A DNA stretch of 64,000 bases from a virus. The position numbers and the translations under genes are program-made. The DNA lies in IMG/VR virus record IMGVR_UViG_3300046777_002716, positions 1 through 64,000 of that record; one strand, given 5' to 3'. Position 1 is the stretch's first letter. Each line of letters opens with the position of its first letter. Under the pieces are notes generated by a model, which searched no databases, was not told the origin of the DNA, and worked only from the letters and a program-made list of their open reading frames with translations. Below, in pieces: positions 1,907 through 13,425 of the stretch.

Positions 1907-2534
1907 TTGGTGATGTCAGTAAGTGTGATTTAATATACAATGCATCTCCCCAGGTTCCACCAGACCAATCAGTTTCAACTCTAATTATATCATATTTTTG
2001 TAAGTATTCATCGAGATCTTCAATTAAAGCATTATTTTCATAAACTTCATCACGATTAACTTCACAATAAACATAATCAATATATTTTAATGTATTTTCT
2101 CCACCCTTCAAAACTTCTAGTTCATAACCTTGAACATCCATGTTGATAAAATTACAGTTAGTAATCTCAAATTGATCTAATTTTTTGACTTCAACTTCTT
2201 CCGTTAATGGAAAACTAACATCTGGATGTTGTGTTAAATGTACTTTAGGTTTAAGAATAGAACTACTTTGTTTTTGATTACTACTAACATACATTGTAGC
2301 AAATCCTGGATTAGATCCAAGAGCCACTTGATATCCTTGTATATTTGCATTTAAATGTTTTACATTCTCTTCCAAAATACTAAAATTTTCACAAAGAGGC
2401 TCAAACAATACAATATCATTGATATTATTATTGACATATTCTGGTATTTCTTCCCCGTAGTGTGCTCCAATATGAATAATTCCTTTAATATTCATATTAT
2501 ATTTTTTAACCATTTCTGAAAAACTAATTAACAT
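1899..2534 (-). CDS. FkbM family SAM-dependent methyltransferase
   Basis: IHIGAHYG, FEP and INMDVQGYELEVLKG motifs; likely start MLISF at 2534. Confidence 0.85.
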   Translation of the reverse strand: MLISFSEMVKKYNMNIKGIIHIGAHYGEEIPEYVNNNINDIVLFEPLCENFSILEENVKHLNANIQGYQVALGSNPGFATMYVSSNQKQSSSILKPKVHLTQHPDVSFPLTEEVEVKKLDQFEITNCNFINMDVQGYELEVLKGGENTLKYIDYVYCEVNRDEVYENNALIEDLDEYLQKYDIIRVETDWSGGTWGDALYIKSHLLTSPNE

Positions 2535-3325
2535 TGTACCCACTCCTTACAATAAAGATCATCTGTATTATGCGTTAATGGTGGACCAAACCATTTTTTT
2601 GGTGCTACTACTTTTTTACTATTAGATAACCATGCTCCCCACCAACTAAATGAACTATTACAGATGATGTGATTATTACATTTAGATTGAAGATATAAAT
2701 CAACGGCAGTATTGTTTTCTTCAGACATGGTGAATCTATTTGATTCAAAAATTTTCTGACTTTTACACCATTCAATATCATCAGAAAATACAATTACTGG
2801 AATATCATTATCAAAGTGACTCAATGCTAACTTATAATAATTAATATCCTGTACTGGGTGATGCGAATAATTTAGATAATCTCCTCTTCTAACATGTAAC
2901 GATAAAATATCAGAATCACCAAACTCAGATTCTAATAACTCATCACAAGGATTTGATATTTCTTCGATGAAAGTAAAATCATTTTTTAATTCTTCCTTGA
3001 TATGATTGAAATATTTTTCAGTTTGAAAATATCCGAAAAGATCTACATTATCTGGACAATTATTCCAGATATTCTCATCAAAATTAAAAGATGATTCTTC
3101 AATCATTATATTGTCGGTGATTTTTCTTTCCACTTCTGGTAATTTAAAGCACTGAAAAATATTAAAATCAGATCTGGCACAATTTGGATCCCTAGTTCCA
3201 ACAAAAGAACTTGGTGGTAGACAATATTCATAATTAAATTTTGATGCTATTCCCCGCAAAGAAGCATATTGGAACATTTGATTTCCAAGTCTACCAAGAT
3301 TGCCAATAGAGTTGTTAGATATCAT
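2528..3325 (-). CDS. Alpha-1,2-fucosyltransferase (GT11)
   Basis: GRLGNQMFQYA, SLHVRRGDY and NSSFSWWGAWL motifs. Confidence 0.9.
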   Translation of the reverse strand: MISNNSIGNLGRLGNQMFQYASLRGIASKFNYEYCLPPSSFVGTRDPNCARSDFNIFQCFKLPEVERKITDNIMIEESSFNFDENIWNNCPDNVDLFGYFQTEKYFNHIKEELKNDFTFIEEISNPCDELLESEFGDSDILSLHVRRGDYLNYSHHPVQDINYYKLALSHFDNDIPVIVFSDDIEWCKSQKIFESNRFTMSEENNTAVDLYLQSKCNNHIICNSSFSWWGAWLSNSKKVVAPKKWFGPPLTHNTDDLYCKEWVQC

Positions 3326-3408: not shown

Positions 3409-3424
3409 AAAATATTTTAAATAG

Positions 3425-3565
3425 ATAATTTTTTTACTGGAAATTATAAACCAGGCGGAGAAAGAATTCCCCATCCGCACCACCAATCCTTGAGAGAGAT
3501 TGGAAACTCATAAGAGGGTCATATTTGACTCCACCAGGGCAAGTTTTAAGTCATTCCTGGACTAA
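3425..3565 (-). ncRNA. Multi-pseudoknot structured RNA resembling the cyanophage manA/wcaG RNA motifs
   Basis: Minus strand AGTCCAGGAATGACT...CCCTGGTGGAGTC...GAGTTTCCAATCTCTCTCAAGGATTGGTGGTGCGGATGGG...CCGCCTGGTTTATAATTTCCAGTAAAAAAATTAT contains three H-type pseudoknot-compatible modules. The family assignment is from memory. Confidence 0.6.
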
Positions 3566-4360: not shown

Positions 4361-4432
4361 TCGGGGTGGAGAGGATCGAACTCCCGTCTTCATCTTCCCA
4401 AAAGATGCCGTCTACCGCTGACTTACACCCCG
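4361..4432 (-). tRNA. tRNA-Pro(TGG)
   Basis: Cloverleaf; CATCT-TTTGGGA-AGATG; GTTCGATCC. Confidence 0.9.
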
Positions 4433-4550
4433 TTGTGCCGTTATTTAGTTCGGTGTACAATCATTATACCTATAACAGGAACGATTGTCAAGAGGTAACA
4501 AAGGATAAACAAAAACACATTATTATTTAACAAAGTTGCTATAAAATGAC

Positions 4551-4742
4551 TCATTTGTTTAAAAATTTAAAAAATTCTTCATTGATTACTTTATCAAGTT
4601 CAGTCAATTGATATCTAGTAAAATCCCAATTATCTAAAATTAACTTATCAATAAATCTATAAACTTCTGTTGATATTTTAATTTTCTGCCTATAAAAAGA
4701 ACTAAGTATGAATTGTCTTTTTTGCCAAACCTCATCTTTCAT
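4551..4742 (-). CDS. Hypothetical protein
   Basis: 63-aa ORF, ATGA-coupled to the upstream small ORF. Confidence 0.55.
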   Translation of the reverse strand: MKDEVWQKRQFILSSFYRQKIKISTEVYRFIDKLILDNWDFTRYQLTELDKVINEEFFKFLNK

Positions 4743-4888
4743 TTTTCGTCACCAAGATACTTTGCTAAGGGATCTTTTTTAGTTTTTACTATTTCAACCG
4801 CTCTCTTATAGAACATGTTTTCGGTGTTACCAGAAGATTCGAAGGTTTCCTTGATCTTCACCCAATTGTTATAGGTGTGCTGATCCAT
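4739..4888 (-). CDS. Small hypothetical protein (49 aa, MDQHTYNNWVKIKETFESSGNTENMFYKRA...)
   Basis: Below the track cut-off; open frame whose stop overlaps the next ATG. Confidence 0.7.
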   Translation of the reverse strand: MDQHTYNNWVKIKETFESSGNTENMFYKRAVEIVKTKKDPLAKYLGDEK

Positions 4889-4914
4889 AAGATTATAAGT
4901 TGAATACTACTAGT

Positions 4915-4958
4915 TATACTAGTAGATAGTTTGATATTGTCATGTTTGTGTTGATACA
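4915..4958 (-). promoter_or_regulatory. Candidate NtcA-activated promoter
   Basis: TGTA-TCAACACA-AACA, then 22 nt, then TAGTAT (GTA-N8-TAC-N22-TAN3T with one mismatch). Confidence 0.4.
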
Positions 4959-5001
4959 AAAATATAGATTAAAAAAATCTAAAATTTTGTAGTATTTGTA
5001 A

Positions 5002-5083
5002 CGGAGAATAATAGAATCGAACTATCAGGTGTTACCCTGGCATCGTTTTCAAGACGATTTACCGACCATCGGTGCTATTCTCC
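5002..5083 (-). tRNA. tRNA-Ser(TGA)
   Basis: ATCGT-CTTGAAA-ACGAT, long variable arm, G73. Confidence 0.85.
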
Positions 5084-5122
5084 ATATTTTGAATATCCCA
5101 AATGTTTTGCGTAGTGACAATA

Positions 5123-5380
5123 TCAGCGGACTTCAAAATCTAATCTTCTTACTTTACGTTGACGCCTTGCTTCTTGAAATGCAAGATCTTCGTTTGTAAG
5201 TAATCCAGATTTTATTTTATTATTTAGAGAGTTTAGCATGACTATCTGTGATAAGTCAACTGCAGAGATCTTATTACCCCTAATAGTTGCCATATTTGGG
5301 CATCCACATGAAACTGTTTTCGTATGATGCCCTTCTATCTCCCTGTTACAGGATCTGCATCTAATTCTTATATTTTCCAT
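5123..5380 (-). CDS. Small Cys-rich (Zn-binding) hypothetical protein
   Basis: CRSC...SCGCPN motif. Confidence 0.7.
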   Translation of the reverse strand: MENIRIRCRSCNREIEGHHTKTVSCGCPNMATIRGNKISAVDLSQIVMLNSLNNKIKSGLLTNEDLAFQEARRQRKVRRLDFEVR

Positions 5381-5399
5381 TTTTAATTATAAAATTTAT

Positions 5400-5837
5400 T
5401 TATTTTTCAGTGAAAGATCTTAAAAACCAAACAAACTTACCGTGTGCCTCGTTTAAATCATCAAGTAGATTTGTAGTTCCTCTTGAATTAAGTTCTTCTG
5501 CAACTTTTGCTGCTTCACTAAACATATCTATAAGAGTTTTATGGTCATCAAGTAGGTCTTTAATCATTTCCATCTCAGATAGACCACTCTTTGCTTCTGA
5601 AACCCTTGATACTTCAGAAACCCTTGAAAGAGCACTAACTGGTTTTGCACCAAGAAAACGAATATGCTCCGAAATTCTATCAACTTCTTCAAAGAGAGCA
5701 TTATACTGCTCACCAAATAAAGTATGAATTTGATAAAAATCAGGTCCACTAATGTGCCAATGATATACCCAAGTTTTTTGAAAAAGAACAAAAAGACTTG
5801 CCTGAGTATCAGATAAAATCTTATATAGTTTTTCCAT
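5400..5837 (-). CDS. dps: Dps/ferritin-like protein
   Basis: HWHISGPDFYQIHTLFGEQY...VDRISEHIRFLG ferroxidase signature; late promoter TATAAATA at 5858-5865. Confidence 0.9.
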   Translation of the reverse strand: MEKLYKILSDTQASLFVLFQKTWVYHWHISGPDFYQIHTLFGEQYNALFEEVDRISEHIRFLGAKPVSALSRVSEVSRVSEAKSGLSEMEMIKDLLDDHKTLIDMFSEAAKVAEELNSRGTTNLLDDLNEAHGKFVWFLRSFTEK

Positions 5838-5868
5838 TATACCAATTAATTTTTAGGTATTTATAATA

Positions 5869-5940
5869 TGGGTGATGACGGGATTGAACCGCCGGCCGCC
5901 TCAATGTAAACGAGATGCTCTACCGCTGAGCTAATCACCC
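5869..5940 (-). tRNA. tRNA-Val(TAC)
   Basis: GGGTGAT acceptor; TCTCG-TTTACAT-TGAGG. Confidence 0.9.
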
Positions 5941-5947
5941 AAAAAAG

Positions 5948-6112
5948 TCATGATTGACTTAGCATATACTCTACAGTATTAGCAATGTCATTCATAGCAG
6001 CACGAAGATCTTTTTGACCTCCAGATTCTTGCTTAATAATTGGTCGTGAAGAATCAGTAAGAGTCCAACGCCATTCATCAGCATGTTCAGAGTACCATAA
6101 TTTAATGTTCAT
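5948..6112 (-). CDS. Small hypothetical protein (54 aa, MNIKLWYSEHADEWRWTL...)
   Basis: Open frame below the track cut-off, overlapping the upstream ORF. Confidence 0.6.
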   Translation of the reverse strand: MNIKLWYSEHADEWRWTLTDSSRPIIKQESGGQKDLRAAMNDIANTVEYMLSQS

Positions 6113-6260
6113 TTTTCTGATACTCCAGTTTAACCCAATTTAAAAGCGCATTATAAGAATAAATTGCCGCTTCATTGCACTTATTCTTTTCCATATCATA
6201 GATATAGAACTCAAGTGCTTCAATGACCATTTGTCGGTCTTTTTGTGAAATAAGAGACAT
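6102..6260 (-). CDS. Small hypothetical protein (52 aa, MSLISQKDRQMVIEALEFY...)
   Basis: Open frame below the track cut-off. Confidence 0.6.
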   Translation of the reverse strand: MSLISQKDRQMVIEALEFYIYDMEKNKCNEAAIYSYNALLNWVKLEYQKNEH

Positions 6261-6294
6261 TGCTGAAAGGGGAGGTTTCCCTCCCCAAGTTACA

Positions 6295-7179
6295 TCAGAA
6301 CTTGAAACCTAGACCAGTGGTGAATACTGGAGAGTATGCACCGTTGGTAGCACCGTAACTGTTAGCAGCATTGGTGGTAGGGAACTTCAGGTCAGCGAAA
6401 CCAACCAGAGAGTTGGTGATACGACCTTCCAGACCCACGGCGAGAACAACTTGACCCTTCTCACCCACAGCGGATTGGAAGTTAGCAGCGGTGTTGTTCA
6501 CGAAAGGAACTTGATAACCCACACCAGCGTACAGGTTTGCCTTGCTCACACCAGAAGCAGCACGGGCGAGACTCCAATCATAAGAAACTAGAGCACCACC
6601 AGCGGCACCGATTTGACCAGCAGGAGTACCAACGAAGTTAGCATAAGGACGGACGGCAACAGCATTTTGGTTGCTGAAGGTACGCACTGCATAACGACCT
6701 TGGATAGTACCACCAGACACGGTACGGTTCTCGGTGTAACCATTACCATCAACACCCTGCTTGTTCAGGAGAACACCAGCACCCAGGTAGTTACCTACGC
6801 CTTGTGCTTTCTGAGCAGAGGCAACTTCCAGAGCACTCACACGGGCGTTGGTGGCACCCAGTTCACGGGAGAACTCAGCACGGAGAGCAGCAGCGGTTTG
6901 GGCATCAGCAGCGGTGTAGAACTCGGTGATGCGGTCCAGGCAAGCATTAGTCAGGGCAGCGAGTTCAGCACGAGTAGCGGGTTGACCAGACTGGAAAGTA
7001 CCATTGGGATAACCAGCAACACAACCATAACGGGCAACAAGATTAGAGATCGCCTGATAGGACCACTCAGTAGGTTGCACATCACGCAGTTGAGAAACGC
7101 TAGTGACTTGTGCCATAGCAGGAGCAGCGATAGAAGTCGCGGCAACTACACCAGCAGTAATAATATTTTGAAAATTCAT
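6295..7179 (-). CDS. SLH-domain outer-membrane protein with a cyanobacterial Som/porin-like N-terminus
   Basis: Signal peptide (AMA|Q); QVTSVSQLRDVQPTEWSYQAISNLVARYGCVAGYPNGTF is the Som-type SLH start; amphipathic beta strands; terminal Phe. Confidence 0.8.
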   Translation of the reverse strand: MNFQNIITAGVVAATSIAAPAMAQVTSVSQLRDVQPTEWSYQAISNLVARYGCVAGYPNGTFQSGQPATRAELAALTNACLDRITEFYTAADAQTAAALRAEFSRELGATNARVSALEVASAQKAQGVGNYLGAGVLLNKQGVDGNGYTENRTVSGGTIQGRYAVRTFSNQNAVAVRPYANFVGTPAGQIGAAGGALVSYDWSLARAASGVSKANLYAGVGYQVPFVNNTAANFQSAVGEKGQVVLAVGLEGRITNSLVGFADLKFPTTNAANSYGATNGAYSPVFTTGLGFKF

Positions 7180-7235
7180 ATTGTATTAATAATTACAACT
7201 ACGAGGTTTATTTAGACGCCCTGAGTATTAGGGCA

Positions 7236-7307
7236 AGCGGCATATCGGATTCGAACCGATGACATTCAGCTTGGAAGGCTGACGTTCTACCACTGAACTA
7301 ATGCCGC
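7236..7307 (-). tRNA. tRNA-Gly(TCC)
   Basis: TCAGC-CTTCCAA-GCTGA. Confidence 0.92.
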
Positions 7308-7310
7308 AAA

Positions 7311-7356
7311 TGGTGGGGAGAAATAAATCTCCCAGCACACTTCTTTCACACGGAAG
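7311..7356 (-). ncRNA. Small RNA with its own sigma70 promoter (GUGUGA 5' motif, ends ...CCACCA)
   Basis: TTGACA (7382-7387)-17-TATAAT (7359-7364), then CCGTGTGAAAGAAGTG and a GGGAGA/TCTCCC hairpin. Confidence 0.45.
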
Positions 7357-7386
7357 GGATTATAAGACAAACTTTAAAGTTTGTCA

Positions 7387-7460
7387 AGCCCCAGACAAGA
7401 CTTGAACTTGCGACCTGAGCTTTACAAAAGCCCTGCTCTATCCAACTGAGCTACTGAGGC
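7387..7460 (-). tRNA. tRNA-Thr(TGT)
   Basis: GGGCT-TTTGTAA-AGCTC. Confidence 0.92.
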
Positions 7461-7464
7461 AAAG

Positions 7465-7559
7465 GTGCCATGAGTGTCCACGGCACACCAGACACTTGGT
7501 TGTTTCGGATATGATGGTCCCGAAACTTATGATAGAATCGGAAATTTCCAACCCTATCA
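7465..7559 (-). ncRNA. Structured spacer RNA (two hairpins plus an H-type pseudoknot)
   Basis: TGATAGGGTTGGAA/TTCCGATTCTATCA; GTTTCGG/CCGAAAC; AGTGTC/GACACT crossed by GTGCCGTG/CATGGCAC. Confidence 0.5.
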
Positions 7560-7560
7560 A

Positions 7561-7633
7561 CTGGGGCGGCAGGGATCGAACCTGCGACCTAGATGTTAAC
7601 AGCATCCCGCTACTACCGCTGAGCTACACCCCA
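7561..7633 (-). tRNA. tRNA-Asn(GTT)
   Basis: GGATG-CTGTTAA-CATCT. Confidence 0.92.
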
Positions 7634-7675
7634 ATGTTTATTTTATAAATAAGATTAGCAGTTCGTGTTAATCTT

Positions 7676-8020
7676 ATGAAATGTGCTTGGCATCTATGTT
7701 TAGAAGAAGCAGTACTTTACAATGGCAGAGGCAAGTTTTGCTCCAAACAATGTAAAAACAAGTATCATGTAGACCAGAGAAGAAAGAAACTCAAGCAAGA
7801 CAGTATAGCATATAAAGGAGGTGCTTGTCAATGTTGTGGTTATAATCGTTCTCACTGGGCATTAGAGTTTCACCATTTAGACCCTAAAGAAAAAGATTTT
7901 CATTTATCTAAAGGTGGTCATACTAGAAGTTGGGAAAAAATCAAAGAAGAATTGGATAAATGTATTCTAGTATGTTCTAACTGCCATTCCGAAATTCATC
8001 ACGGAATTCGTGAATTATAA
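7676..8020 (+). CDS. Free-standing HNH homing endonuclease
   Basis: FCSKQC Zn knuckle; CQCCG...LEFHHLDP...CILVCSNCHSEIH; late promoter TATAAATA at 7644-7651. Confidence 0.85.
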   Translation: MKCAWHLCLEEAVLYNGRGKFCSKQCKNKYHVDQRRKKLKQDSIAYKGGACQCCGYNRSHWALEFHHLDPKEKDFHLSKGGHTRSWEKIKEELDKCILVCSNCHSEIHHGIREL

Positions 8021-8030
8021 TGGAATGTAA

Positions 8031-8073
8031 GGGAAAGGAGTGCTCTTGGGCGAACCCGCAGGATCACTTTCCC
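8031..8073 (-). ncRNA. Hairpin spacer RNA with a UUCG tetraloop
   Basis: GGGAAAG...GGG-TTCG-CCC...CTTTCCC. Confidence 0.4.
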
Positions 8074-8075
8074 GA

Positions 8076-8148
8076 TGGAGAATAGGAGACTCGAACTCCT
8101 GACCTTCGCCTTGCAAAGGCGCTGCTCTACCAACTGAGCTAATTCCCC
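8076..8148 (-). tRNA. tRNA-Ala(TGC)
   Basis: GGGGAAT acceptor with G3-U70; GCGCC-TTTGCAA-GGCGA. Confidence 0.93.
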
Positions 8149-8149
8149 T

Positions 8150-8225
8150 TGGGAGCGAGAGGGTGGAATTGAACCACCTACCTGAGGCTTATGAGACCTC
8201 CGTGCAACCGTTACACCTCTCCGCA
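8150..8225 (-). tRNA. tRNA-Met(CAT), initiator-like, with a bulged acceptor stem
   Basis: GAGGT-CTCATAA-GCCTC; mismatched first pair; one extra nt in the 3' acceptor strand. Confidence 0.75.
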
Positions 8226-8269
8226 ATGCGTTTATGACAATCATAAGGTATATATACCAGATTGTCAAG

Positions 8270-8343
8270 TGCCCGTGATAGGAGTCGAACCTACACTGTA
8301 TGGATTCTAAGTCCACCCTCTCTGCCAGTTGGAGTACACGGGC
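8270..8343 (-). tRNA. tRNA-Leu(TAG), short variable loop
   Basis: GTGGA-CTTAGAA-TCCAT. Confidence 0.88.
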
Positions 8344-8344
8344 A

Positions 8345-8402
8345 AGATGGATTAAGTGTGATATACCTCATAAGGATATAACAGGGACCTAACCTCTATC
8401 TC
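8345..8402 (-). ncRNA. Promoter-proximal hairpin RNA
   Basis: TTGACA-17-TACTAT promoter upstream; GGTTAGGT/ACTTAATC and ATAT(CC)T/AGG-TATAT nested stems. Confidence 0.4.
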
Positions 8403-8437
8403 TTTATATAGTAACAAATTCTAAAGAATTTGTCAAG

Positions 8438-8511
8438 CGTCCTCTGCAGGATTTGAACCTGCGACTTCTTCGTTCGTAGCGAAGCACTCTGTTCCACTGA
8501 GTTAAGAGGAC
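8438..8511 (-). tRNA. tRNA-Arg(ACG)
   Basis: CTTCG-CTACGAA-CGAAG. Confidence 0.92.
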
Positions 8512-8516
8512 AAAGG

Positions 8517-8589
8517 CACCCTCGGTAGGATTCGAACCTACGACTAATCGCTTAGAAGGCGAATACTCTAGCCACTGAGTTACGAGGGC
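8517..8589 (-). tRNA. tRNA-Arg(TCT)
   Basis: TTCGC-CTTCTAA-GCGAT. Confidence 0.9.
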
Positions 8590-8593
8590 ATTT

Positions 8594-8667
8594 TGGCGAA
8601 GGATGAGGGATTTGAACCCCCACTAACAGTTTTGGAGACTGTCGTGCTACCATTACACTAATCCAAC
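8594..8667 (-). tRNA. tRNA-Trp(CCA)
   Basis: ACAGT-CTCCAAA-ACTGT; encoded CCA; two U-U mismatches in the acceptor. Confidence 0.85.
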
Positions 8668-8689
8668 ATAAGTTCCTCAAGATGAGGAA

Positions 8690-8777
8690 TACCAGCCGAG
8701 GGTATCGAACCCTCCCAAAGGCCCTAATCTGGGGCAAATCGCTTATAAGGCGACTCTGAACACCTGTTCTGACTGGC
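8690..8777 (-). tRNA. Atypical tRNA with a TAT (Ile) anticodon, long variable arm and reduced D arm
   Basis: GTCGC-CTTATAA-GCGAT; GCCC-CAGATTA-GGGC extra arm; GAAC-AGGT-GTTC D arm. Confidence 0.75.
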
Positions 8778-8800
8778 GATTATTTACTCATAAAGAGCAA

Positions 8801-8879
8801 TACTCCACCTCAGACTTGAACTGAGAATCCGAAGAAGTAGATTTTGAGTCTACCGCGTTTACCATTTCGCCAGTGGAGC
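8801..8879 (-). tRNA. tRNA-Leu(CAA)
   Basis: GTAGA-CTCAAAA-TCTAC. Confidence 0.9.
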
Positions 8880-8906
8880 GTAATTATACAAACTTTAAGT
8901 TTGCAA

Positions 8907-8979
8907 TACCCGTGGTCGGATTCGAACCGACACTGTAGAGATTTTAAGTCTCCTGTCTCTGCCGTTGGACTACACGGGC
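8907..8979 (-). tRNA. tRNA-Leu(TAA), short variable loop
   Basis: GGAGA-CTTAAAA-TCTCT. Confidence 0.88.
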
Positions 8980-8983
8980 ATAG

Positions 8984-9056
8984 TGCTCGATGAGGGGATC
9001 GAACCCACCTATATCCGATTATGAGTCGGGTGCTTTCACCAGATAGCTAATCGAGC
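8984..9056 (-). tRNA. tRNA with a CAT anticodon (probably Ile2, lysidine type)
   Basis: CCCGA-CTCATAA-TCGGA resembles the bacterial Ile2 anticodon arm. Confidence 0.8.
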
Positions 9057-9065
9057 AGTGTTAGG

Positions 9066-9158
9066 TTTTCAAGGTTCGAAGTGGTCTCTCAACCACCCTC
9101 TTAGAATAACACCAAACCCAGTCTGGGTCAAGTGGGTTGTGCCAGTTTGGGAACTGGC
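9066..9158 (-). promoter_or_regulatory. tRNA-operon promoter with palindrome, boxB-like hairpin and rrn boxA
   Basis: GCCAGTTCCCAAACTGGCAC; TTGACC-17-TATTCT; GTGGT-TGAGAG-ACCAC; GAACCTTGAAAA. Confidence 0.7.
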
Positions 9159-9160
9159 GA

Positions 9161-9234
9161 TGTCCGTGAGAGGATTCGAACCTCCAACACCTACCCCCTC
9201 AAGGTAGTGCCTCTTCCAGTTGGGCTACACGGAC
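9161..9234 (-). tRNA. tRNA-Leu(GAG), short variable loop
   Basis: CTACC-TTGAGGG-GGTAG. Confidence 0.85.
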
Positions 9235-9237
9235 GAG

Positions 9238-9309
9238 TTCCAGAACTAGGATTCGAACCTAGACAAACACAGTCAAAGTGTGTTGACCTGCCAGTTAGTC
9301 GATTCTGGA
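9238..9309 (-). tRNA. tRNA-Gln(TTG)
   Basis: ACACA-CTTTGAC-TGTGT; U1-A72. Confidence 0.88.
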
Positions 9310-9328
9310 TTGAAATGGGATTACCCCA

Positions 9329-9664
9329 TTAGTAATATGAAAATGATGCAGAAGTAGCAGTAGCAGTGTCTGTAGCATCATCATCATCTTGATGTTTACG
9401 ATTTTTAAAATACATAAACAAAGGTGATTTTTCGGTTGGAACTAGTACATCAGACCAAAAAGATTCTCCTGACGAACATTGATAAAGAACATCACCCTCA
9501 TAAGGAATCATAGCAACAGCATTGCAAGAATTGTCTTTAATGTAATTATATTCTTTATAATATACTGGACGATTTTTTGCTGCTTGCATAGCAAACACTG
9601 GTTCACTGATTCCAAAAATAATCAAAAACAGAAAAAATAATTTAATGATAAATTTCATAATCAA
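9329..9664 (-). CDS. Hypothetical secreted protein inside the tRNA array
   Basis: N-terminal signal peptide (..EPVFA|M); two Cys; acidic/Thr-Ala tail. Confidence 0.6.
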   Translation of the reverse strand: MIMKFIIKLFFLFLIIFGISEPVFAMQAAKNRPVYYKEYNYIKDNSCNAVAMIPYEGDVLYQCSSGESFWSDVLVPTEKSPLFMYFKNRKHQDDDDATDTATATSASFSYY

Positions 9665-9697
9665 TTGTAGTTTGTTTATTATCTCAAAAGAGATAAG

Positions 9698-9773
9698 AGT
9701 TCAGGGTGGGATTTGAACCCACGGTGAAAGAAGTTTTGCAGACTTCCGCATTCGACCACTCTGCCACCTGAAC
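9698..9773 (-). tRNA. tRNA-Cys(GCA)
   Basis: GAAGT-CTGCAAA-ACTTC; U73. Confidence 0.9.
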
Positions 9774-9776
9774 ATA

Positions 9777-9849
9777 TGGGTCTGGTGGGGTTTGAACCCA
9801 CAACTTTTCGGTTAAGAGCCGACTACTCTACCAATTGAGTTACAGACCC
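9777..9849 (-). tRNA. tRNA-Lys(CTT)
   Basis: GTCGG-CTCTTAA-CCGAA. Confidence 0.9.
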
Positions 9850-9852
9850 AAG

Positions 9853-9924
9853 AGCCCTTAGTGAGAATCAAACTCACGACCTCATTCTTACCAAGAATGC
9901 GTTCTATCACTGAACTATAAGGGC
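9853..9924 (-). tRNA. tRNA-Thr(GGT)
   Basis: CATTC-TTGGTAA-GAATG; A19/U56 variant. Confidence 0.85.
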
Positions 9925-9926
9925 GG

Positions 9927-9998
9927 GGTGCCATACGAGATTTGAACTCGTCTACCCAGTTTCACAAACTGGTTCCTTAACCACTAGGATAATGGCAC
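9927..9998 (-). tRNA. tRNA-His(GTG)
   Basis: CCAGT-TTGTGAA-ACTGG; C73; no genomic G-1. Confidence 0.85.
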
Positions 9999-9999
9999 A

Positions 10000-10073
10000 T
10001 GGCAGTAGATGGATTTGAACCACCGACCATAGGAATATGAGACCCGTGCTCTACCAAACTGAGCTATACTGCC
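10000..10073 (-). tRNA. tRNA-Met(CAT), elongator-like
   Basis: GGCAGTA acceptor; CTCATAT loop on a weak anticodon stem. Confidence 0.8.
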
Positions 10074-10076
10074 AAA

Positions 10077-10161
10077 CGGAGAGTAGAGGATTCGAACCTC
10101 TGGTGCTGTTACACACAAGACCTTTCCAAGATCTCACCATAAACCACTCGGACAACTCTCC
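10077..10161 (-). tRNA. tRNA-Ser(GGA)
   Basis: AGATC-TTGGAAA-GGTCT; long variable arm. Confidence 0.9.
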
Positions 10162-10165
10162 AAGG

Positions 10166-10254
10166 CGGAAGTGGTTGGATTCGAACCAACGGTGCCGATT
10201 ACTCGACACGGAATCTTAGCAGGATTCTGCGATAAGCCTCTCTGCCACACTTCC
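10166..10254 (-). tRNA. tRNA-Ser(GCT)
   Basis: GAATC-CTGCTAA-GATTC; long variable arm. Confidence 0.9.
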
Positions 10255-10257
10255 AAG

Positions 10258-10350
10258 TTGATAAGGGCACCTGTCCGAATTTAAAGTGCGCTTGGGTCGT
10301 TTAATCCACCGCCGTCACACTAATGTTTGGTGGCGATGGACCCTTATCAA
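10258..10350 (-). ncRNA. Three-way-junction spacer RNA
   Basis: 10-bp closing stem TTGATAAGGG/CCCTTATCAA; TCCATCGCC/GGCGGTGGA; GCACTT/AGGTGC. Confidence 0.6.
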
Positions 10351-10364
10351 ATCCCCGAAGGGAA

Positions 10365-10436
10365 TTGGAACGGTGAGATTTGAACTCACGACTTCTGCGT
10401 TATCAGCACAGCACTCTACCACTGAGTTACATTCCA
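10365..10436 (-). tRNA. tRNA-Ile(GAT)
   Basis: CTGTG-CTGATAA-CGCAG. Confidence 0.9.
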
Positions 10437-10440
10437 TCGA

Positions 10441-10554
10441 AGTAAGAGACACTAGTATCATCTTACCTGTTTCAGTTTTCGGACTGAAAAACCTATCACT
10501 AACCAACCTAAGTTTCATAACGGAGGAAGTGAATCTCCGTGACCATAAAGGTCA
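10441..10554 (-). ncRNA. Multi-hairpin spacer RNA
   Basis: TGACC/GGTCA; ACGGAG/CTCCGT; TTTCAGT/ACTGAAA; GTAAGA/TCTTAC. Confidence 0.45.
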
Positions 10555-10556
10555 AG

Positions 10557-10630
10557 TGGGAACACACAGAATTGAACTGTGACCTCATGTTCTTCAGACA
10601 TACGTGCCGACCAACCTACACCATGTTCCC
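10557..10630 (-). tRNA. tRNA-Phe(GAA)
   Basis: TATGT-CTGAAGA-ACATG. Confidence 0.85.
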
Positions 10631-10635
10631 AAAGT

Positions 10636-10713
10636 TTGGAAATTCAGGAATCGAACCTGTCGGGCAGTAAGGGCGATCAACTCCCCACTTTCCTGTGTTC
10701 CACACATTTCCAA
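10636..10713 (-). ncRNA. tRNA-like RNA (acceptor and T arm, no canonical D or anticodon arm)
   Basis: TTGGAAAT/ATTTCCAA; CAGG-TTCGATT-CCTG; TGTG-GAA-CACA; AGTGGGG/CCTTACT. Confidence 0.6.
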
Positions 10714-10714
10714 G

Positions 10715-10788
10715 TCGGAATGACAGGATTCGAACCTGCGACATCTCGCTCCCAAAGCGAGTGCTCTACCAAACTGAGCTACATTCCG
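10715..10788 (-). tRNA. tRNA-Pro(TGG)
   Basis: CTCGC-TTTGGGA-GCGAG. Confidence 0.93.
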
Positions 10789-10865
10789 TGGTCTGAGAGG
10801 CAGGATTTGAACCTGCGACCTGAGCGTTCCAAACACCCAGCTCTACCAAACTGAGCTACTCCCAG
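10789..10865 (-). tRNA. tRNA-Pro(TGG), third copy, with encoded CCA
   Basis: GGGTG-TTTGGAA-CGCTC; A37 instead of G37. Confidence 0.85.
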
Positions 10866-10868
10866 AGG

Positions 10869-10940
10869 TATTCCTAACGGGATTCGAACCCGTGCTACAA
10901 CCTTGAAAGGGTTGTGACCTAACCGCTAGTCGATAGGAAC
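10869..10940 (-). tRNA. tRNA-Glu(TTC)
   Basis: CAACC-CTTTCAA-GGTTG. Confidence 0.92.
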
Positions 10941-10942
10941 TT

Positions 10943-11118
10943 GAGAGAGGGGTATCCCACACGAAGTTACTTACGGATCACGCTTCGTAGCCTTATGGAT
11001 CCTGCCAGGGTCAATCTGGTGCCTAGGAATCCCTCTCCAATTCCAGTTATCGCTACGTCATTTCTTACCTAACTGGCAACCTTCAGAATGACGTGGAGAT
11101 TCGTACTGATGATCTCCA
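10943..11118 (-). ncRNA. Large double-pseudoknot spacer RNA(s)
   Basis: ACGTCATT/AATGACGT crossed by CCAGTTA/TAACTGG; GGAGAGGG...CCCCTCTC enclosing GGATC/GATCC crossed by ACGAAG/CTTCGT. Confidence 0.6.
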
Positions 11119-11119
11119 A

Positions 11120-11192
11120 CGACCCTATGGGAATTCGAATCCCAGATTCCTACTAGACAGGTAGGCGTGATAGACCACTTCACTATAGGGCC
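11120..11192 (-). tRNA. tRNA-Asp(GTC)
   Basis: CCTAC-CTGTCTA-GTAGG. Confidence 0.88.
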
Positions 11193-11195
11193 ATG

Positions 11196-11268
11196 TTCAC
11201 CCGAGCAGGATTCGAACCTGCATCTCTTTCCATGGAAAGACGACATACCATTAGCCGCATCGGATGAA
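11196..11268 (-). ncRNA. tRNA-like RNA without a 7-nt anticodon loop
   Basis: TTCATCCGA/TCGGGTGAA acceptor; CGGC/GTCG D arm; palindromic TCTTTCCATGGAAAGA; perfect T arm GCAGG-TTCGAAT-CCTGC. Confidence 0.7.
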
Positions 11269-11270
11269 GG

Positions 11271-11361
11271 TGGGAGAGGAGGGAATCGAACCCCCGATGG
11301 TTCTTATGTAACGGTTTTACAGACCGCCGCCACACATATTGCCGACAGTAGCCACTCTCCC
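11271..11361 (-). tRNA. tRNA-Tyr(GTA) with an enlarged D loop
   Basis: GCGGT-CTGTAAA-ACCGT; long variable region. Confidence 0.85.
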
Positions 11362-11399
11362 AAATAGTTTATATTTAACGACCGAACTAAAACGGTCAA

Positions 11400-11471
11400 T
11401 GGGTCTGGTGGGATTTGAACCCACAACTTCCAGGTTAAAAGCCCGTTACTCTACCGTTGAGTTACAGACCC
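11400..11471 (-). tRNA. tRNA-Lys(TTT)
   Basis: ACGGG-CTTTTAA-CCTGG; body nearly identical to tRNA-Lys(CTT). Confidence 0.9.
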
Positions 11472-11485
11472 ATAAAAGGTTTAGA

Positions 11486-11668
11486 TTGTCAAGGTGCGAT
11501 TGTCACTGGAAGATAATGTTTTATCCAGAGGCCCAAGATAAATCTTAGGACTTAGACTGATGCTAGAAGCAGAGCAGTGACTTGTGGTGGTCTCTCAACC
11601 ACCCTTTAAGAATACCACTCTGTCCGTTAGGGGTCAAGTGGGTTGTGACACTTAGAGAACTGTCACAA
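11486..11668 (-). promoter_or_regulatory. Main tRNA-operon early promoter with palindrome, boxB-like hairpin, structured insert and boxA
   Basis: TTGTGACAGTT..AAGTGTCACAA; TTGACC-17-TATTCT; GTGGT-TGAGAG-ACCAC; GCACCTTGACAA. Confidence 0.7.
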
Positions 11669-11673
11669 GCAAC

Positions 11674-11708
11674 AAAAAAGGGGAGGAAACTTTTGGTTTC
11701 TCTCCCCT
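11674..11708 (-). terminator. Attenuator terminator upstream of the tRNA array
   Basis: AGGGGAG-A-GAAAC-CAAAA-GTTTC-CTCCCCT-TTTTT; its 5' arm is also complementary to CTCCCCTGT in the leader ORF. Confidence 0.85.
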
Positions 11709-11732
11709 GTCTTTTTGCTTTTATGGCAGTTA

Positions 11733-11834
11733 CTACATCTGACCTACCATACTCGCAAACAGGGGAGCACCCTCAATATGCCAATAGCGGCAATCGAGAA
11801 TACTAAACTGTTTTGTGGGCATTGGGTAAGACAT
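11733..11834 (-). CDS. Putative attenuator leader peptide MSYPMPTKQFSILDCRYWHIEGAPLFASMVGQM (33 aa)
   Basis: Late promoter TATAAATA at 11856-11863, AGGT SD-like site, ATG at 11834, tandem TAG TAA; overlaps the antiterminator. Confidence 0.75.
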   Translation of the reverse strand: MSYPMPTKQFSILDCRYWHIEGAPLFASMVGQM

Positions 11835-11887
11835 TGTTTTCGACCTAAGTGTTATTATTTATAATACTTTTATTTTTAAAAGTCAAG

Positions 11888-11962
11888 CGTCTCAGGTTGG
11901 ATTCGAACCAACGACTCACGCTTTAGAAGAGCGTTACTCTAATTCCACTGAGTTACTGAGAC
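11888..11962 (-). tRNA. tRNA-Arg(TCT), second copy
   Basis: ACGCT-CTTCTAA-AGCGT. Confidence 0.9.
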
Positions 11963-11967
11963 AAGAG

Positions 11968-12042
11968 ACCTCCTGGTTTGTGCATCGTTGAGAGGCATAG
12001 GAGGGGAAGGACTTATGCGAAGTTTGGACCTCCGCCGCCTAT
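11968..12042 (-). ncRNA. Promoter-proximal structured RNA
   Basis: TTGACA (12072-12077)-17-TATAAT (12049-12054); GCGGAG/CTTCGC and CCTCCT/AGGAGG stems. Confidence 0.4.
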
Positions 12043-12073
12043 GAGGATATTATAGGGTATCAGGAGCGGCGTG

Positions 12074-12265
12074 TCAACCCTTTGCTTCCTTACGGGCGTT
12101 ACGCTCCTCAGTAATCTCGCCTCTACGTGCCTTGACGAGTTTGGCAACTTCCTGAAGTGCCTTACGGGCACGGGTGCCTGCTGCGTTGTTTCCACCAGCA
12201 AACTTTTCGTCTTCTACTTTCCAAGCTTCAACAGCATCAAGTAGTTGTTGTGATGTTTCAGACAT
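12074..12265 (-). CDS. Histone H1-like (Hc1-type) small basic protein
   Basis: EKFAGGNNAAGTRARKALQEVAKLVKARR motif; GGAG SD before MSETS. Confidence 0.65.
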   Translation of the reverse strand: MSETSQQLLDAVEAWKVEDEKFAGGNNAAGTRARKALQEVAKLVKARRGEITEERNARKEAKG

Positions 12266-12302
12266 AATAATCTCCAATAAAAATAAGATATGTGTATATA
12301 TG

Positions 12303-12710
12303 CTAGTTTTTAGGGCAGTTTTCTATCCAGGGGGCACATAACCTCATTTCACCACCCAAAGATTTACATTCTTCAGTATAGCAAACAGAAGAATCTACTG
12401 GTTTCTCGGAGAATATTGGAGCAGGAACTTCTGCTGGTTTTTCGCCAGTCTGTCTCCAATAATCCTCAATTGCTCTATCAACATCCCTCTTGATTCTCCT
12501 ATCCAGTTTTTCTGGGTCTTTGATTATAAAATCGTTGAGAATAGTTTGAGGAAAATGTCTTCTTTGGATTTCATCAAATAAGTCCCAAATCTTATTTTCA
12601 GAAATACCCGTGCATTGAGAGAGTGCCGCAATAATAGAAGATAATACTATACCAATTATTACGTACTGCTTTATATCTGGTTTCTTGTTGCCAAAATTAA
12701 ATTTGAACAT
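12303..12710 (-). CDS. Hypothetical membrane-anchored protein
   Basis: N-terminal TM helix; C-terminal Cys cluster. Confidence 0.65.
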   Translation of the reverse strand: MFKFNFGNKKPDIKQYVIIGIVLSSIIAALSQCTGISENKIWDLFDEIQRRHFPQTILNDFIIKDPEKLDRRIKRDVDRAIEDYWRQTGEKPAEVPAPIFSEKPVDSSVCYTEECKSLGGEMRLCAPWIENCPKN

Positions 12711-12753
12711 AAAAAAGGGGAGGTTGCAGCACTCCCCTTATTTATTCAGTTTT

Positions 12754-13425
12754 TTATACTTCAGTGAGAATCATTTTGTTCGCATAGTTATAGGCATAAT
12801 CTGTGCGAGCACCATGATGACCCCAACGAATCCACTTACGGGCAAGACGCATATAGTCATTGATTGTACGACCAGGAGTCTTCATATGTCGTTCAATCAT
12901 TCTCCAGTCAGACTCATTTAACATATAGTCAAGTTGAGTTTCAAGACTGGATGGATTAGCGCCGATTTTGGTAGCGTGTCTTCCAAGACCATTATACCTG
13001 GCAGAATCAGTCCATTGAATTAGACCATATCCACCACTCCTACAACTGTGATAGGAAACTCTAGCACCACCTTCACAAATATTCGGAATGAATGTTGATT
13101 CCTGCCTAATGTTACCCATAATGGTAGCAAGGGCATTTTTGTCATAAATTCCACGGTCTTGCAGGAATGCAAGAGTACGGGATTCATATTTATTACACCC
13201 TTTACAAATAAGTCGCTTTTCTTTTGGTTTTTCGGGAGCAACCTCGCGGATTGCTGTCTTCTTTTCATCTACAAGATCAAACTCTTTAATAATCGAATAA
13301 GGTGCCTTTTCCTCTATTGGAGGAGGGGGACCTTGCATCTTGTAGTTGACGAATGGCAGTGAAGCCGTACTGGTTGTAACCGATGCCAAAAGGGGAACGG
13401 CTACAGTTGTAAAGTTAAAAAGCAT
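12754..13425 (-). CDS. Phage-tail-lysozyme-type cell wall hydrolase
   Basis: ATIMGNIRQES...GYGLIQWT...R...LETQLDYMLNE motif; N-terminal signal-like region. Confidence 0.75.
   Translation of the reverse strand: MLFNFTTVAVPLLASVTTSTASLPFVNYKMQGPPPPIEEKAPYSIIKEFDLVDEKKTAIREVAPEKPKEKRLICKGCNKYESRTLAFLQDRGIYDKNALATIMGNIRQESTFIPNICEGGARVSYHSCRSGGYGLIQWTDSARYNGLGRHATKIGANPSSLETQLDYMLNESDWRMIERHMKTPGRTINDYMRLARKWIRWGHHGARTDYAYNYANKMILTEV

Follow-up and report, generated by a model that had tools for sequence, protein, structure and literature searches.

Hairpin-boxA leaders of the host rRNA-operon type ahead of tRNA blocks in a T4-like freshwater cyanophage

The tRNA array and its source

The genome fragment considered here, referred to as the window, comprises the first 64 kb of the 101.9-kb IMG/VR virus record IMGVR_UViG_3300046777_002716 (completeness about 48% by CheckV estimate). 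It carries a dense array of transfer RNA (tRNA) genes in which two consecutive blocks are each headed by a promoter, a hairpin and a 12-nt box that resembles boxA, the Nus-factor signal of ribosomal RNA (rRNA) operons (rrn). These hairpin-box leaders, their distribution among related phages and their likeness to the boxA of cyanobacterial hosts are the subject of this report.

The replication genes in the window are of the T4 type and all lie on the minus strand (a family-B DNA polymerase, NrdA/NrdB and an SMC-like ATPase). The freshwater Synechococcus phage S-SRM01 has the most similar polymerase (82.5% identity), other Kyanoviridae follow at 60-68%, and by this comparison the source virus is classed as a T4-like freshwater cyanophage (Kyanoviridae) whose nearest isolate is S-SRM01. 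The G+C content of the window is about 35%, and that of the likely Synechococcus hosts is presumably far higher. The near-whole stretch is encountered in two freshwater DNA metagenome runs only, which are of equal size and may be a single data set deposited twice or the source sample.

ARAGORN recognizes 32 tRNA genes, every one of them on the minus strand, in the interval 4361-11962, and Rfam adds three tRNA-like genes missed by ARAGORN (11272-11361, 11197-11266 and 8154-8224, minus strand), the first of which is of the long-arm type and occupies the position of tRNA-Tyr in phage S-PM2, so that the array has at least 35 members. Because all tRNAs are on the minus strand the leaders are read as the reverse complement, and minus-strand coordinates written from high to low below follow the direction of reading. 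Block B (11472-9161) extends from tRNA-Lys(UUU) to tRNA-Leu(GAG) and holds 16 ARAGORN tRNAs, two further tRNA-like genes, structured spacers and one open reading frame (ORF) of 111 amino acids (aa). Block A (9056-8437) holds seven tRNAs (Met, Leu, Leu, Ile, Trp, Arg, Arg) and extends up to the next predicted consensus promoter, at 8436-8408.

The two promoter-leader cassettes

The cassettes lie on the minus strand at 9158-9066 (copy A) and 11666-11486 (copy B), and both contain CACAACCCAC-TTGACC-17-TATTCT followed by an identical 18-nt hairpin. Copy A begins with the palindrome GCCAGTTcccaAACTGGC (9158-9141), which lies 2 nt after tRNA-Leu(GAG) and lacks a T-run; freshwater relatives have comparable, imperfect palindromes. 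Promoter A, AACCCAC-TTGACC-17 nt-(TGt)TATTCT, spans 9138-9103 (AACCCAC 9138-9132, TTGACC 9131-9126, TATTCT 9108-9103) and has a predicted start at about 9097 +/- 2. The leader hairpin GGGTGGTTGAGAGACCAC (9098-9081) is identical to that of copy B. A gap of 3 nt separates it from the box GAACCTTGAAAA (9077-9066), and 9 nt lie between the box and tRNA-Met(CAU), which starts at 9056.

Copy B is preceded by the palindrome GTGACA-N10-TGTCAC (11666-11645; one match against 0.02 expected), which is kept in marine relatives just upstream of the promoter; it may serve as a binding site or form a hairpin in the RNA. Promoter B, AACCCAC-TTGACC-17 nt-(TGg)TATTCT, spans 11644-11609 (AACCCAC 11644-11638, TTGACC 11637-11632, TATTCT 11614-11609), with a predicted start at about 11603 +/- 2, within the first bases of the boxB-like hairpin GGGTGGTTGAGAGACCAC(C) (11604-11586; the 18-mer is 11604-11587). 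About 90 nt separate this hairpin from the boxA-like box GCACCTTGACAA (11497-11486), which lies 13 nt before tRNA-Lys(UUU), starting at 11472. Most of the interval is taken up by an inserted 80-nt stem-loop (11581-11502) with the closing stem GUCACUG/CAGUGAC and a minimum free energy of -34.2 kcal/mol (z -2.1); its helix ends 4 nt before the box, so the insertion restores a helix beside it. The distance from the end of the -10 element to the box is 25 nt in copy A and 111 nt in copy B. In both copies the predicted start coincides with the first bases of the hairpin.

A first-pass annotation of this DNA, made from the letters alone, had described two promoters sharing AACCCAC-TTGACC-17-TATTCT and an identical hairpin. 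This arrangement is confirmed on the minus strand, and each component is rarer by chance than observed: the promoter pattern gave two matches against 0.02 expected, the 18-mer hairpin with up to three mismatches two against 0.03, and the exact box pattern GMACCTTGAMAA two against 0.04, both at equivalent leader positions. The identical stretch is in fact longer than first noted (CACAACCCACTTGACCC). Two other details were only partly right. A palindrome does precede both promoters, but the two differ in sequence and are thus not shared, and the succession of hairpin and then box just before the first tRNA describes copy A, in which the two are adjacent, but not copy B, in which they are split by the 80-nt stem-loop. 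The 17-nt promoter spacers of A and B are unrelated, and therefore the copies are taken, on comparison of the two sequences, to share motifs rather than to stem from a recent duplication.

When one mismatch is allowed the box alone yields five matches against 2.25 expected, which is not significant, so that the weight rests on the exact matches and their equivalent positions. Over the whole 101.9-kb record a relaxed box pattern adds only one antisense match in a tRNA T-arm and one other. A box-like match on the plus strand at 9255-9266 was rejected as a signal, being the antisense of the tRNA-Gln T-arm. Rfam contains no family for the leader. Four RNA-library runs contain pieces of the stretch as contigs from relatives, one of which skips the 80-nt stem-loop while another spans it; these libraries may contain DNA, and the contigs are uninformative on starts, strands and levels.

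In copy B and many relatives the box includes TTGACA, and internal promoters of the array read cTTGACAA, which raises the question of whether the box is simply the -35 hexamer of a second promoter for the first tRNA. Spacing speaks against this, and the box was rejected as a -35 element on that ground: from a box 9-24 nt before the tRNA 5′-end transcription would start inside the tRNA, and no -10 element is found 16-18 nt downstream in copy A or copy B. The variants TTGAAAA, CTAGACAA and ATCGACAA moreover lack the hexamer, and the proposal is scarcely credible.

Conservation of the leader among related phages

A scan of 2.9 million viral contigs for a hairpin followed by the box returned 102 loci, an estimated 27 or so of which may be due to chance. 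With S-PM2 and the window included there are 104 matches, of which 85 are located 9-24 nt ahead of a tRNA; in 81 of the 85 this is a tRNA-Lys(UUU) that heads an array of up to 27 tRNAs. As a search with the box is circular, a box-blind sample was assembled with the 5′ half of tRNA-Lys alone as bait; among its 49 copies, promoter, hairpin and box are present at all 42 tRNA-Lys genes at array heads and the leader is present at none of the seven array-internal copies. Many of the conserved loci are near-identical; taken together, the data comprise 51 distinct leaders. All 51 have a helix that ends 0-5 nt before the box, although 15 different stems are used (mean z -3.0 against shuffles), and the 80-nt stem-loop of copy B is absent from all 49 other distinct leaders of relatives. 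Distinct boxes among the relatives include GCACCTTGACAA, GAACCTAGACAA (a host 16S-leader form) and GCACCTCGACAA (a host rpsJ form), and a large subgroup has G[A/C]ACATCGACAA. Box and tRNA are separated by 9-24 nt of spacer, the length and sequence of which vary freely.

Among isolates, S-PM2 displays the order tRNA-Arg(UCU), micro-ORF, terminator, palindrome, promoter, hairpin GGTGGGGGAACGAGACCCACC, one base, GCACCTTGAAAA, 11 nt, tRNA-Lys and array. Its sole canonical box, GCACCTTGAAAA, is the one at the array head, and a second, relaxed match (GAACATAGAAAA at 154501) corresponds to the control rate. S-CREM1 (with a stem based on GGAGG/CCTCC) and B3 (stem GTTGA/TCAAC) also carry a hairpin-box leader. 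The first-pass annotation had set lack of conservation upstream of tRNA arrays in relatives as an outcome that would refute it; instead the leader occurs at every array head sampled as well as in these three isolates, and by its sequence distribution it is not peculiar to this phage.

Similarity searches recover almost nothing because the element is too short. With BLAST against isolate phage genomes copy A had no match and copy B matched only the S-PM2 terminator and palindrome, while the leader of one relative matched B3, B23 and S-CREM1. No RNAalifold consensus emerged from 49 leaders aligned with MAFFT, owing to the misalignment of stems of differing length, and helix conservation was measured instead by folding each sequence separately with shuffles.

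The variation among stems also bears on the possibility that a phage-encoded factor (N-like, or another elongation or regulatory protein) binds the box, whose likeness to host boxA would then be partial mimicry. Lambda does pair boxA with its own N protein, and a small gene annotated as 'transcription elongation factor' lies 1.6 kb upstream of the S-CREM1 array. A protein-specific boxB would, however, not be expected to come in 15 stems of differing sequence, and the order is rrn-like (hairpin then box) and not nut-like; no candidate protein was identified in the window, where no search aimed at an N-like gene was made. We regard such a factor as improbable.

The nearest isolate offers a natural contrast. 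In S-SRM01 only 84 nt separate tRNA-Arg from tRNA-Asn, versus 4252 nt here (7635-11886), and the dense block of about 4.25 kb that is missing from S-SRM01 holds both leaders and at least 28 tRNA or tRNA-like genes. The flanking tRNAs keep their order in S-SRM01 (Arg-UCU, Asn, Thr, Gly, Val, Ser, Pro) and are dispersed between ORFs. No box lies near the tRNAs of this phage, and its single genome-wide relaxed match lies elsewhere, at the control rate. Judged from this pair of genomes, both leaders come and go with the dense tRNA block.

Identity of the box with host boxA

The boxA of the cyanobacterial 16S-23S spacer is GAACCTTGAAAA (PMC8461337), and that of marine picocyanobacteria is GAACCTTGACAA, the reverse complement of a boxA primer (PMC9769826). 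When species-representative genomes were searched for the box plus the D4 motif, most of the matches were cyanobacterial rrn operons and a few fell in other phyla. Both GAACCTTGAAAA and GAACCTTGACAA occur in cyanobacterial rrn loci, dozens in all, with a hairpin ending 1-3 nt before each. Overall the host spacer boxA can be written GAACCTTGA[A/C]AA, likewise 1-3 nt after a hairpin, and the host 16S-leader boxA G[A/C]ACCT[A/G]GA[A/C]AA, GCACC forms included. Most cyanobacteria have GAACCTAGA[A/C]AA as their 16S-leader box; Synechococcus-type genomes carry GAACCTGGACAA or GCACCTGGACAA there, and high-light Prochlorococcus carries GCACCTAGAAAA. In five picocyanobacterial genomes, which represent likely host lineages, the same box is present in both the 16S leader and the 16S-23S spacer.

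The earlier claim that the box is the cyanobacterial rrn boxA is thus borne out by both publications and by dozens of rrn loci, and the alignment to host leader and spacer boxA that it called for places both phage copies inside the range of host variants. Copy A is exactly the cyanobacterial spacer boxA. Copy B is one base off the picocyanobacterial spacer boxA and has GCACC in common with the 16S-leader and rpsJ boxes of the same group.

The rpsJ boxes were found in four of the five picocyanobacterial genomes, where a hairpin and box lie 85-113 nt before the S10 Pfam match of rpsJ, the gene for ribosomal protein S10, which is NusE. Their sequences are GCACCTCGACAA, GAACCTTGAAAA, GCTCCTCGACAA and GAACCTCGACAA; three fit the search pattern exactly and GCTCCTCGACAA is off at one position, while each genome contains only about 5-9 matches to the pattern. 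The hairpin and box are located in the tufA-rpsJ spacer, and the hairpin of Synechococcus CS-1330, GGGGTGG...CCACCCC, resembles the phage stem. A boxA-based autoregulation of NusE upstream of rpsJ has been proposed for gamma-proteobacteria (Baniulyte et al. 2017, PMC5725501), and the tufA-rpsJ arrangement suggests a similar autoregulation in Rho-less cyanobacteria; literature searches found no report of boxA before rpsJ in cyanobacteria. Because the same box also stands upstream of rpsJ, paralleling that proposal, it is best read as the Nus-factor site of this lineage rather than as an rRNA-processing motif, a reading based on sequence, and both phage copies fall within its host variants.

The boxA of Escherichia coli rrn operons is GCUCUUUAACAA. 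When aligned base for base, copy B matches it at 9 of 12 positions, which include the G and C that have been named as key BoxA contacts (PMC3177189).

Two alternative readings of the box can be weighed against these host data. In one, the hairpin and box constitute a leader for RNA stability or processing that functions without Nus factors, wherein the 5′ hairpin blocks RNases that depend on the 5′-end and the A-rich box guides RNase E or RNase P. The hairpin indeed begins at the predicted +1 in every promoter type, and the box is only 9-24 nt from the RNase P site; yet a letter-for-letter host boxA, and the occurrence of the box at rpsJ and at both rrn sites, would be left unexplained, and the spacer beside the RNase P site varies freely whereas the box does not. 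A leader of this kind is unlikely, if still deserving of serious attention. In the other, the box is a functionless remnant of host rrn/tRNA DNA that was captured along with tRNA genes, as might be imagined from the host spacer boxA adjoining tRNA-Ile and tRNA-Ala. The host box is, however, downstream of these tRNAs and the phage box upstream of tRNA-Lys or tRNA-Met, the box is kept across marine and freshwater lineages despite completely diverged flanks, and copies A and B share only functional motifs and not promoter spacers, all of which render a remnant very improbable.

Proposed function and its limits

We consider it reasonably probable, from the sequence evidence above, that the two leaders load host NusB-S10 and so establish an rrn-type elongation complex on the tRNA transcripts. 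The transcript is predicted to start at or within a few bases of the GC-rich hairpin, and the box, on emerging from host RNA polymerase, would be bound by host NusB-S10 with the help of the adjacent helix. Together with NusA, NusG and accessory factors this would generate a modified elongation complex of the rrn type, which would be faster, would resist pauses and hairpin terminators and might aid RNA folding, a gain that would suit an untranslated run of 0.6-2.3 kb of highly structured tRNA genes. The internal leader A would restart transcription and reload the factors after the 111-aa ORF that interrupts the array.

NusB was detected in all five picocyanobacterial genomes and S10 was located in the same five. 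No Rho was found in any of them (best score at most 27 bits against a cut-off of 509). As NusB is present and Rho absent, the benefit would lie in speed and in resistance to pauses and terminators and not in protection from Rho. The proposal of the first-pass annotation, that the phage borrows host rRNA antitermination for its tRNA operons, is supported, provided that the term is not taken to mean shielding from Rho. On NusB-NusE the site for double-stranded RNA is contiguous with the BoxA site (PMC3177189), which fits a helix that always abuts the box.

Several points weigh against a Nus-loading leader. Nus binding and the effect on elongation are what we infer from sequence, and the start sites are predicted. 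In hosts that lack Rho the textbook reason for placing boxA on untranslated RNA is inapplicable. To our knowledge the role of boxA in cyanobacteria has never been tested directly, so that this part of the argument rests on analogy. In the large subgroup of relatives with G[A/C]ACATCGACAA the fifth base aligns with position 6 of lambda BoxA, and a transversion at that position weakens NusB-NusE binding (PMC3177189). A 5′ hairpin is also expected of a simple RNA-stabilising leader.

An affinity for NusB-S10 might instead be exploited in trans, with a hairpin-boxA leader of about 40 nt, once released by RNase P, soaking up NusB-S10 and helping to shut down host rRNA synthesis. In favour of this, the promoters have a strong, extended-minus-10-like appearance, and RNase P would detach the leader, which is very short and would be stabilised by its 5′ hairpin. 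The decoy is nevertheless pure conjecture, and the leader co-occurs with dense arrays and not with phages generally, for which a role in cis is the better fit; we rate a decoy as a poor prospect.

Other features of the locus

The 111-aa ORF interrupting the array lies just upstream of leader A (9664-9329, minus strand). The N-terminus of its product (MKFIIKLFFLFLIIFGISEPVFA) resembles a signal peptide, the tail is acidic and rich in Thr/Ala, and there is no above-threshold Pfam match. The non-tRNA spacers of block B (10255-10364, 10437-10555, 10631-10713 and 10941-11118, minus strand) may be small RNAs of the phage. That at 10255-10364 has a strong fold (-39 kcal/mol, z -3.3), and that at 10631-10713 is tRNA-like, with an acceptor-type stem and a GGUUCGAUUCC T-loop, and is called by no tool.

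Consensus promoters internal to the array (8436-8408, 8268-8240 and 7387-7359, minus strand) begin immediately at tRNA 3′-ends, with the sequence (G)C(A)CTTGACAA. The resemblance of CTTGACAA to the 3′ two-thirds of the box is probably a coincidence of the -35 hexamer. The scattered tRNAs of the window are preceded by perfect TTGACA-17-TATAAT promoters and not by hairpin-box leaders. At the distal edge of the dense block a plus-strand ORF (7676-8020) has only a sub-threshold HNH/zinc-ribbon match (16.7 bits). Farther away, a wcaG RNA motif (Rfam RF01761, 71 bits) is located at 3411-3511 on the minus strand, upstream of an ORF at 2528-3325.

Upstream of leader B, a terminator scan identified a hairpin and T-run resembling an intrinsic terminator (11708-11674, minus strand), and S-PM2 has the same element in the same place. 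It ends a unit composed of a consensus promoter, an abiF-like motif, tRNA-Arg(UCU) and a micro-ORF of 33 aa. The promoter (12077-12049, minus strand) is a perfect TTGACA-17-TATAAT. The Rfam abiF RNA motif (11968-12004, minus strand; 49 bits against a gathering score of 37) lies between this promoter and tRNA-Arg(UCU) at 11887-11962, and the abiF/promoter/tRNA-Arg stretch is the sole part of 9000-13000 that matches S-SRM01 DNA (84%). The micro-ORF (MSYPMPTKQFSILDCRYWHIEGAPLFASMVGQM; 11733-11834, minus strand), between tRNA-Arg and the terminator, has no Pfam match; S-PM2 has a micro-ORF at the equivalent place, and a DCRYWHI core, read by eye, is common to both.

Novelty and implications

Literature searches on boxA or antitermination in combination with cyanophages or phage tRNA found no description of the leader element. 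Features that are the window's own are the internal second leader, the 80-nt insertion in copy B and the contrast with S-SRM01.

Discussion of phage tRNA arrays is mostly confined to codon usage, which leaves unaddressed how long, structured and untranslated operons are transcribed efficiently. If the Nus-loading leader is correct, a host-type boxA heading practically every cyanomyovirus array would constitute a second phage route to the Nus factors after lambda N, and one needing no phage protein; a boxA leader would also be a handle on boxA function in Rho-less cyanobacteria. The element is short, S-PM2 and S-CREM1 have cultured hosts, and the leader could be of use as a small module for expressing untranslated RNA operons in cyanobacteria.

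A much broader proposition, which we hold to be doubtful, is that cyanomyoviruses as a group hijack the host rRNA transcription complex through boxA on their tRNA operons. Since picocyanobacteria lack Rho, this would expose a Rho-independent task of boxA and the Nus factors (speed, anti-pausing and co-transcriptional folding), and would also pull NusB-S10 off host rrn operons, in cis or by a decoy leader, contributing to host shut-off.

Comparison with known systems

Clusters of tRNA genes in T4 and other Straboviridae are comparable in that the phage types are homologous and the tRNA and small RNA clusters are transcribed early. In T4, Vibrio phage VS1 and Aeromonas phage 65.2, matches to the strict gamma-proteobacterial boxA consensus had no downstream tRNA gene within 1.5 kb on each side, and the trait is therefore not general to T4-like phages, as far as these three genomes go.

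In the lambda nut site boxA comes before boxB, and the phage N protein is bound to boxB. There, as would be the case here, a phage uses boxA on nascent RNA to modify host RNA polymerase by means of Nus factors. The element described here differs in its order, hairpin then box, and in a hairpin whose sequence is not conserved, and because of these two differences its sequence is of the host type and not of the lambda nut type.

The boxA sites upstream of suhB and rpsJ (PMC5725501) demonstrate that boxA is used outside rrn operons, and the box and hairpin at cyanobacterial rpsJ in four of five genomes are a further instance. Those sites repress messenger RNA genes, whereas the phage target is a stable-RNA operon on which an activating, rrn-like role would be expected.

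Another comparison is with the boxB-boxA-D4 region of the cyanobacterial 16S-23S spacer (nomenclature of Iteman et al. 2000, as used in PMC8461337). Copy A has the spacer boxA without a single change, and in the spacer, too, the hairpin ends 1-3 nt before the box. In hosts the D4 motif CTGCATA, absent from the phage, comes after the box, and the box is downstream of tRNA-Ile/Ala, in contrast to a phage box upstream of its tRNAs.

By every sequence feature tested, the element belongs with the boxB-boxA leader of the rrn type. Bacterial rrn operons combine boxB, boxA and boxC with a complex of NusB, S10/NusE, NusA, NusG, SuhB and S4. The phage element differs in that it heads a tRNA operon, is only about 40 nt long and has no defined equivalent of boxC, and in that the five picocyanobacterial genomes are Rho-less, so that its benefit would be other than anti-Rho. 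It agrees with the rrn leader in the succession of hairpin and then boxA, in its predicted place within an untranslated leader, downstream of a promoter that looks strong and ahead of structured stable-RNA genes, and in a 12-mer identical to the boxA of the host lineage itself.

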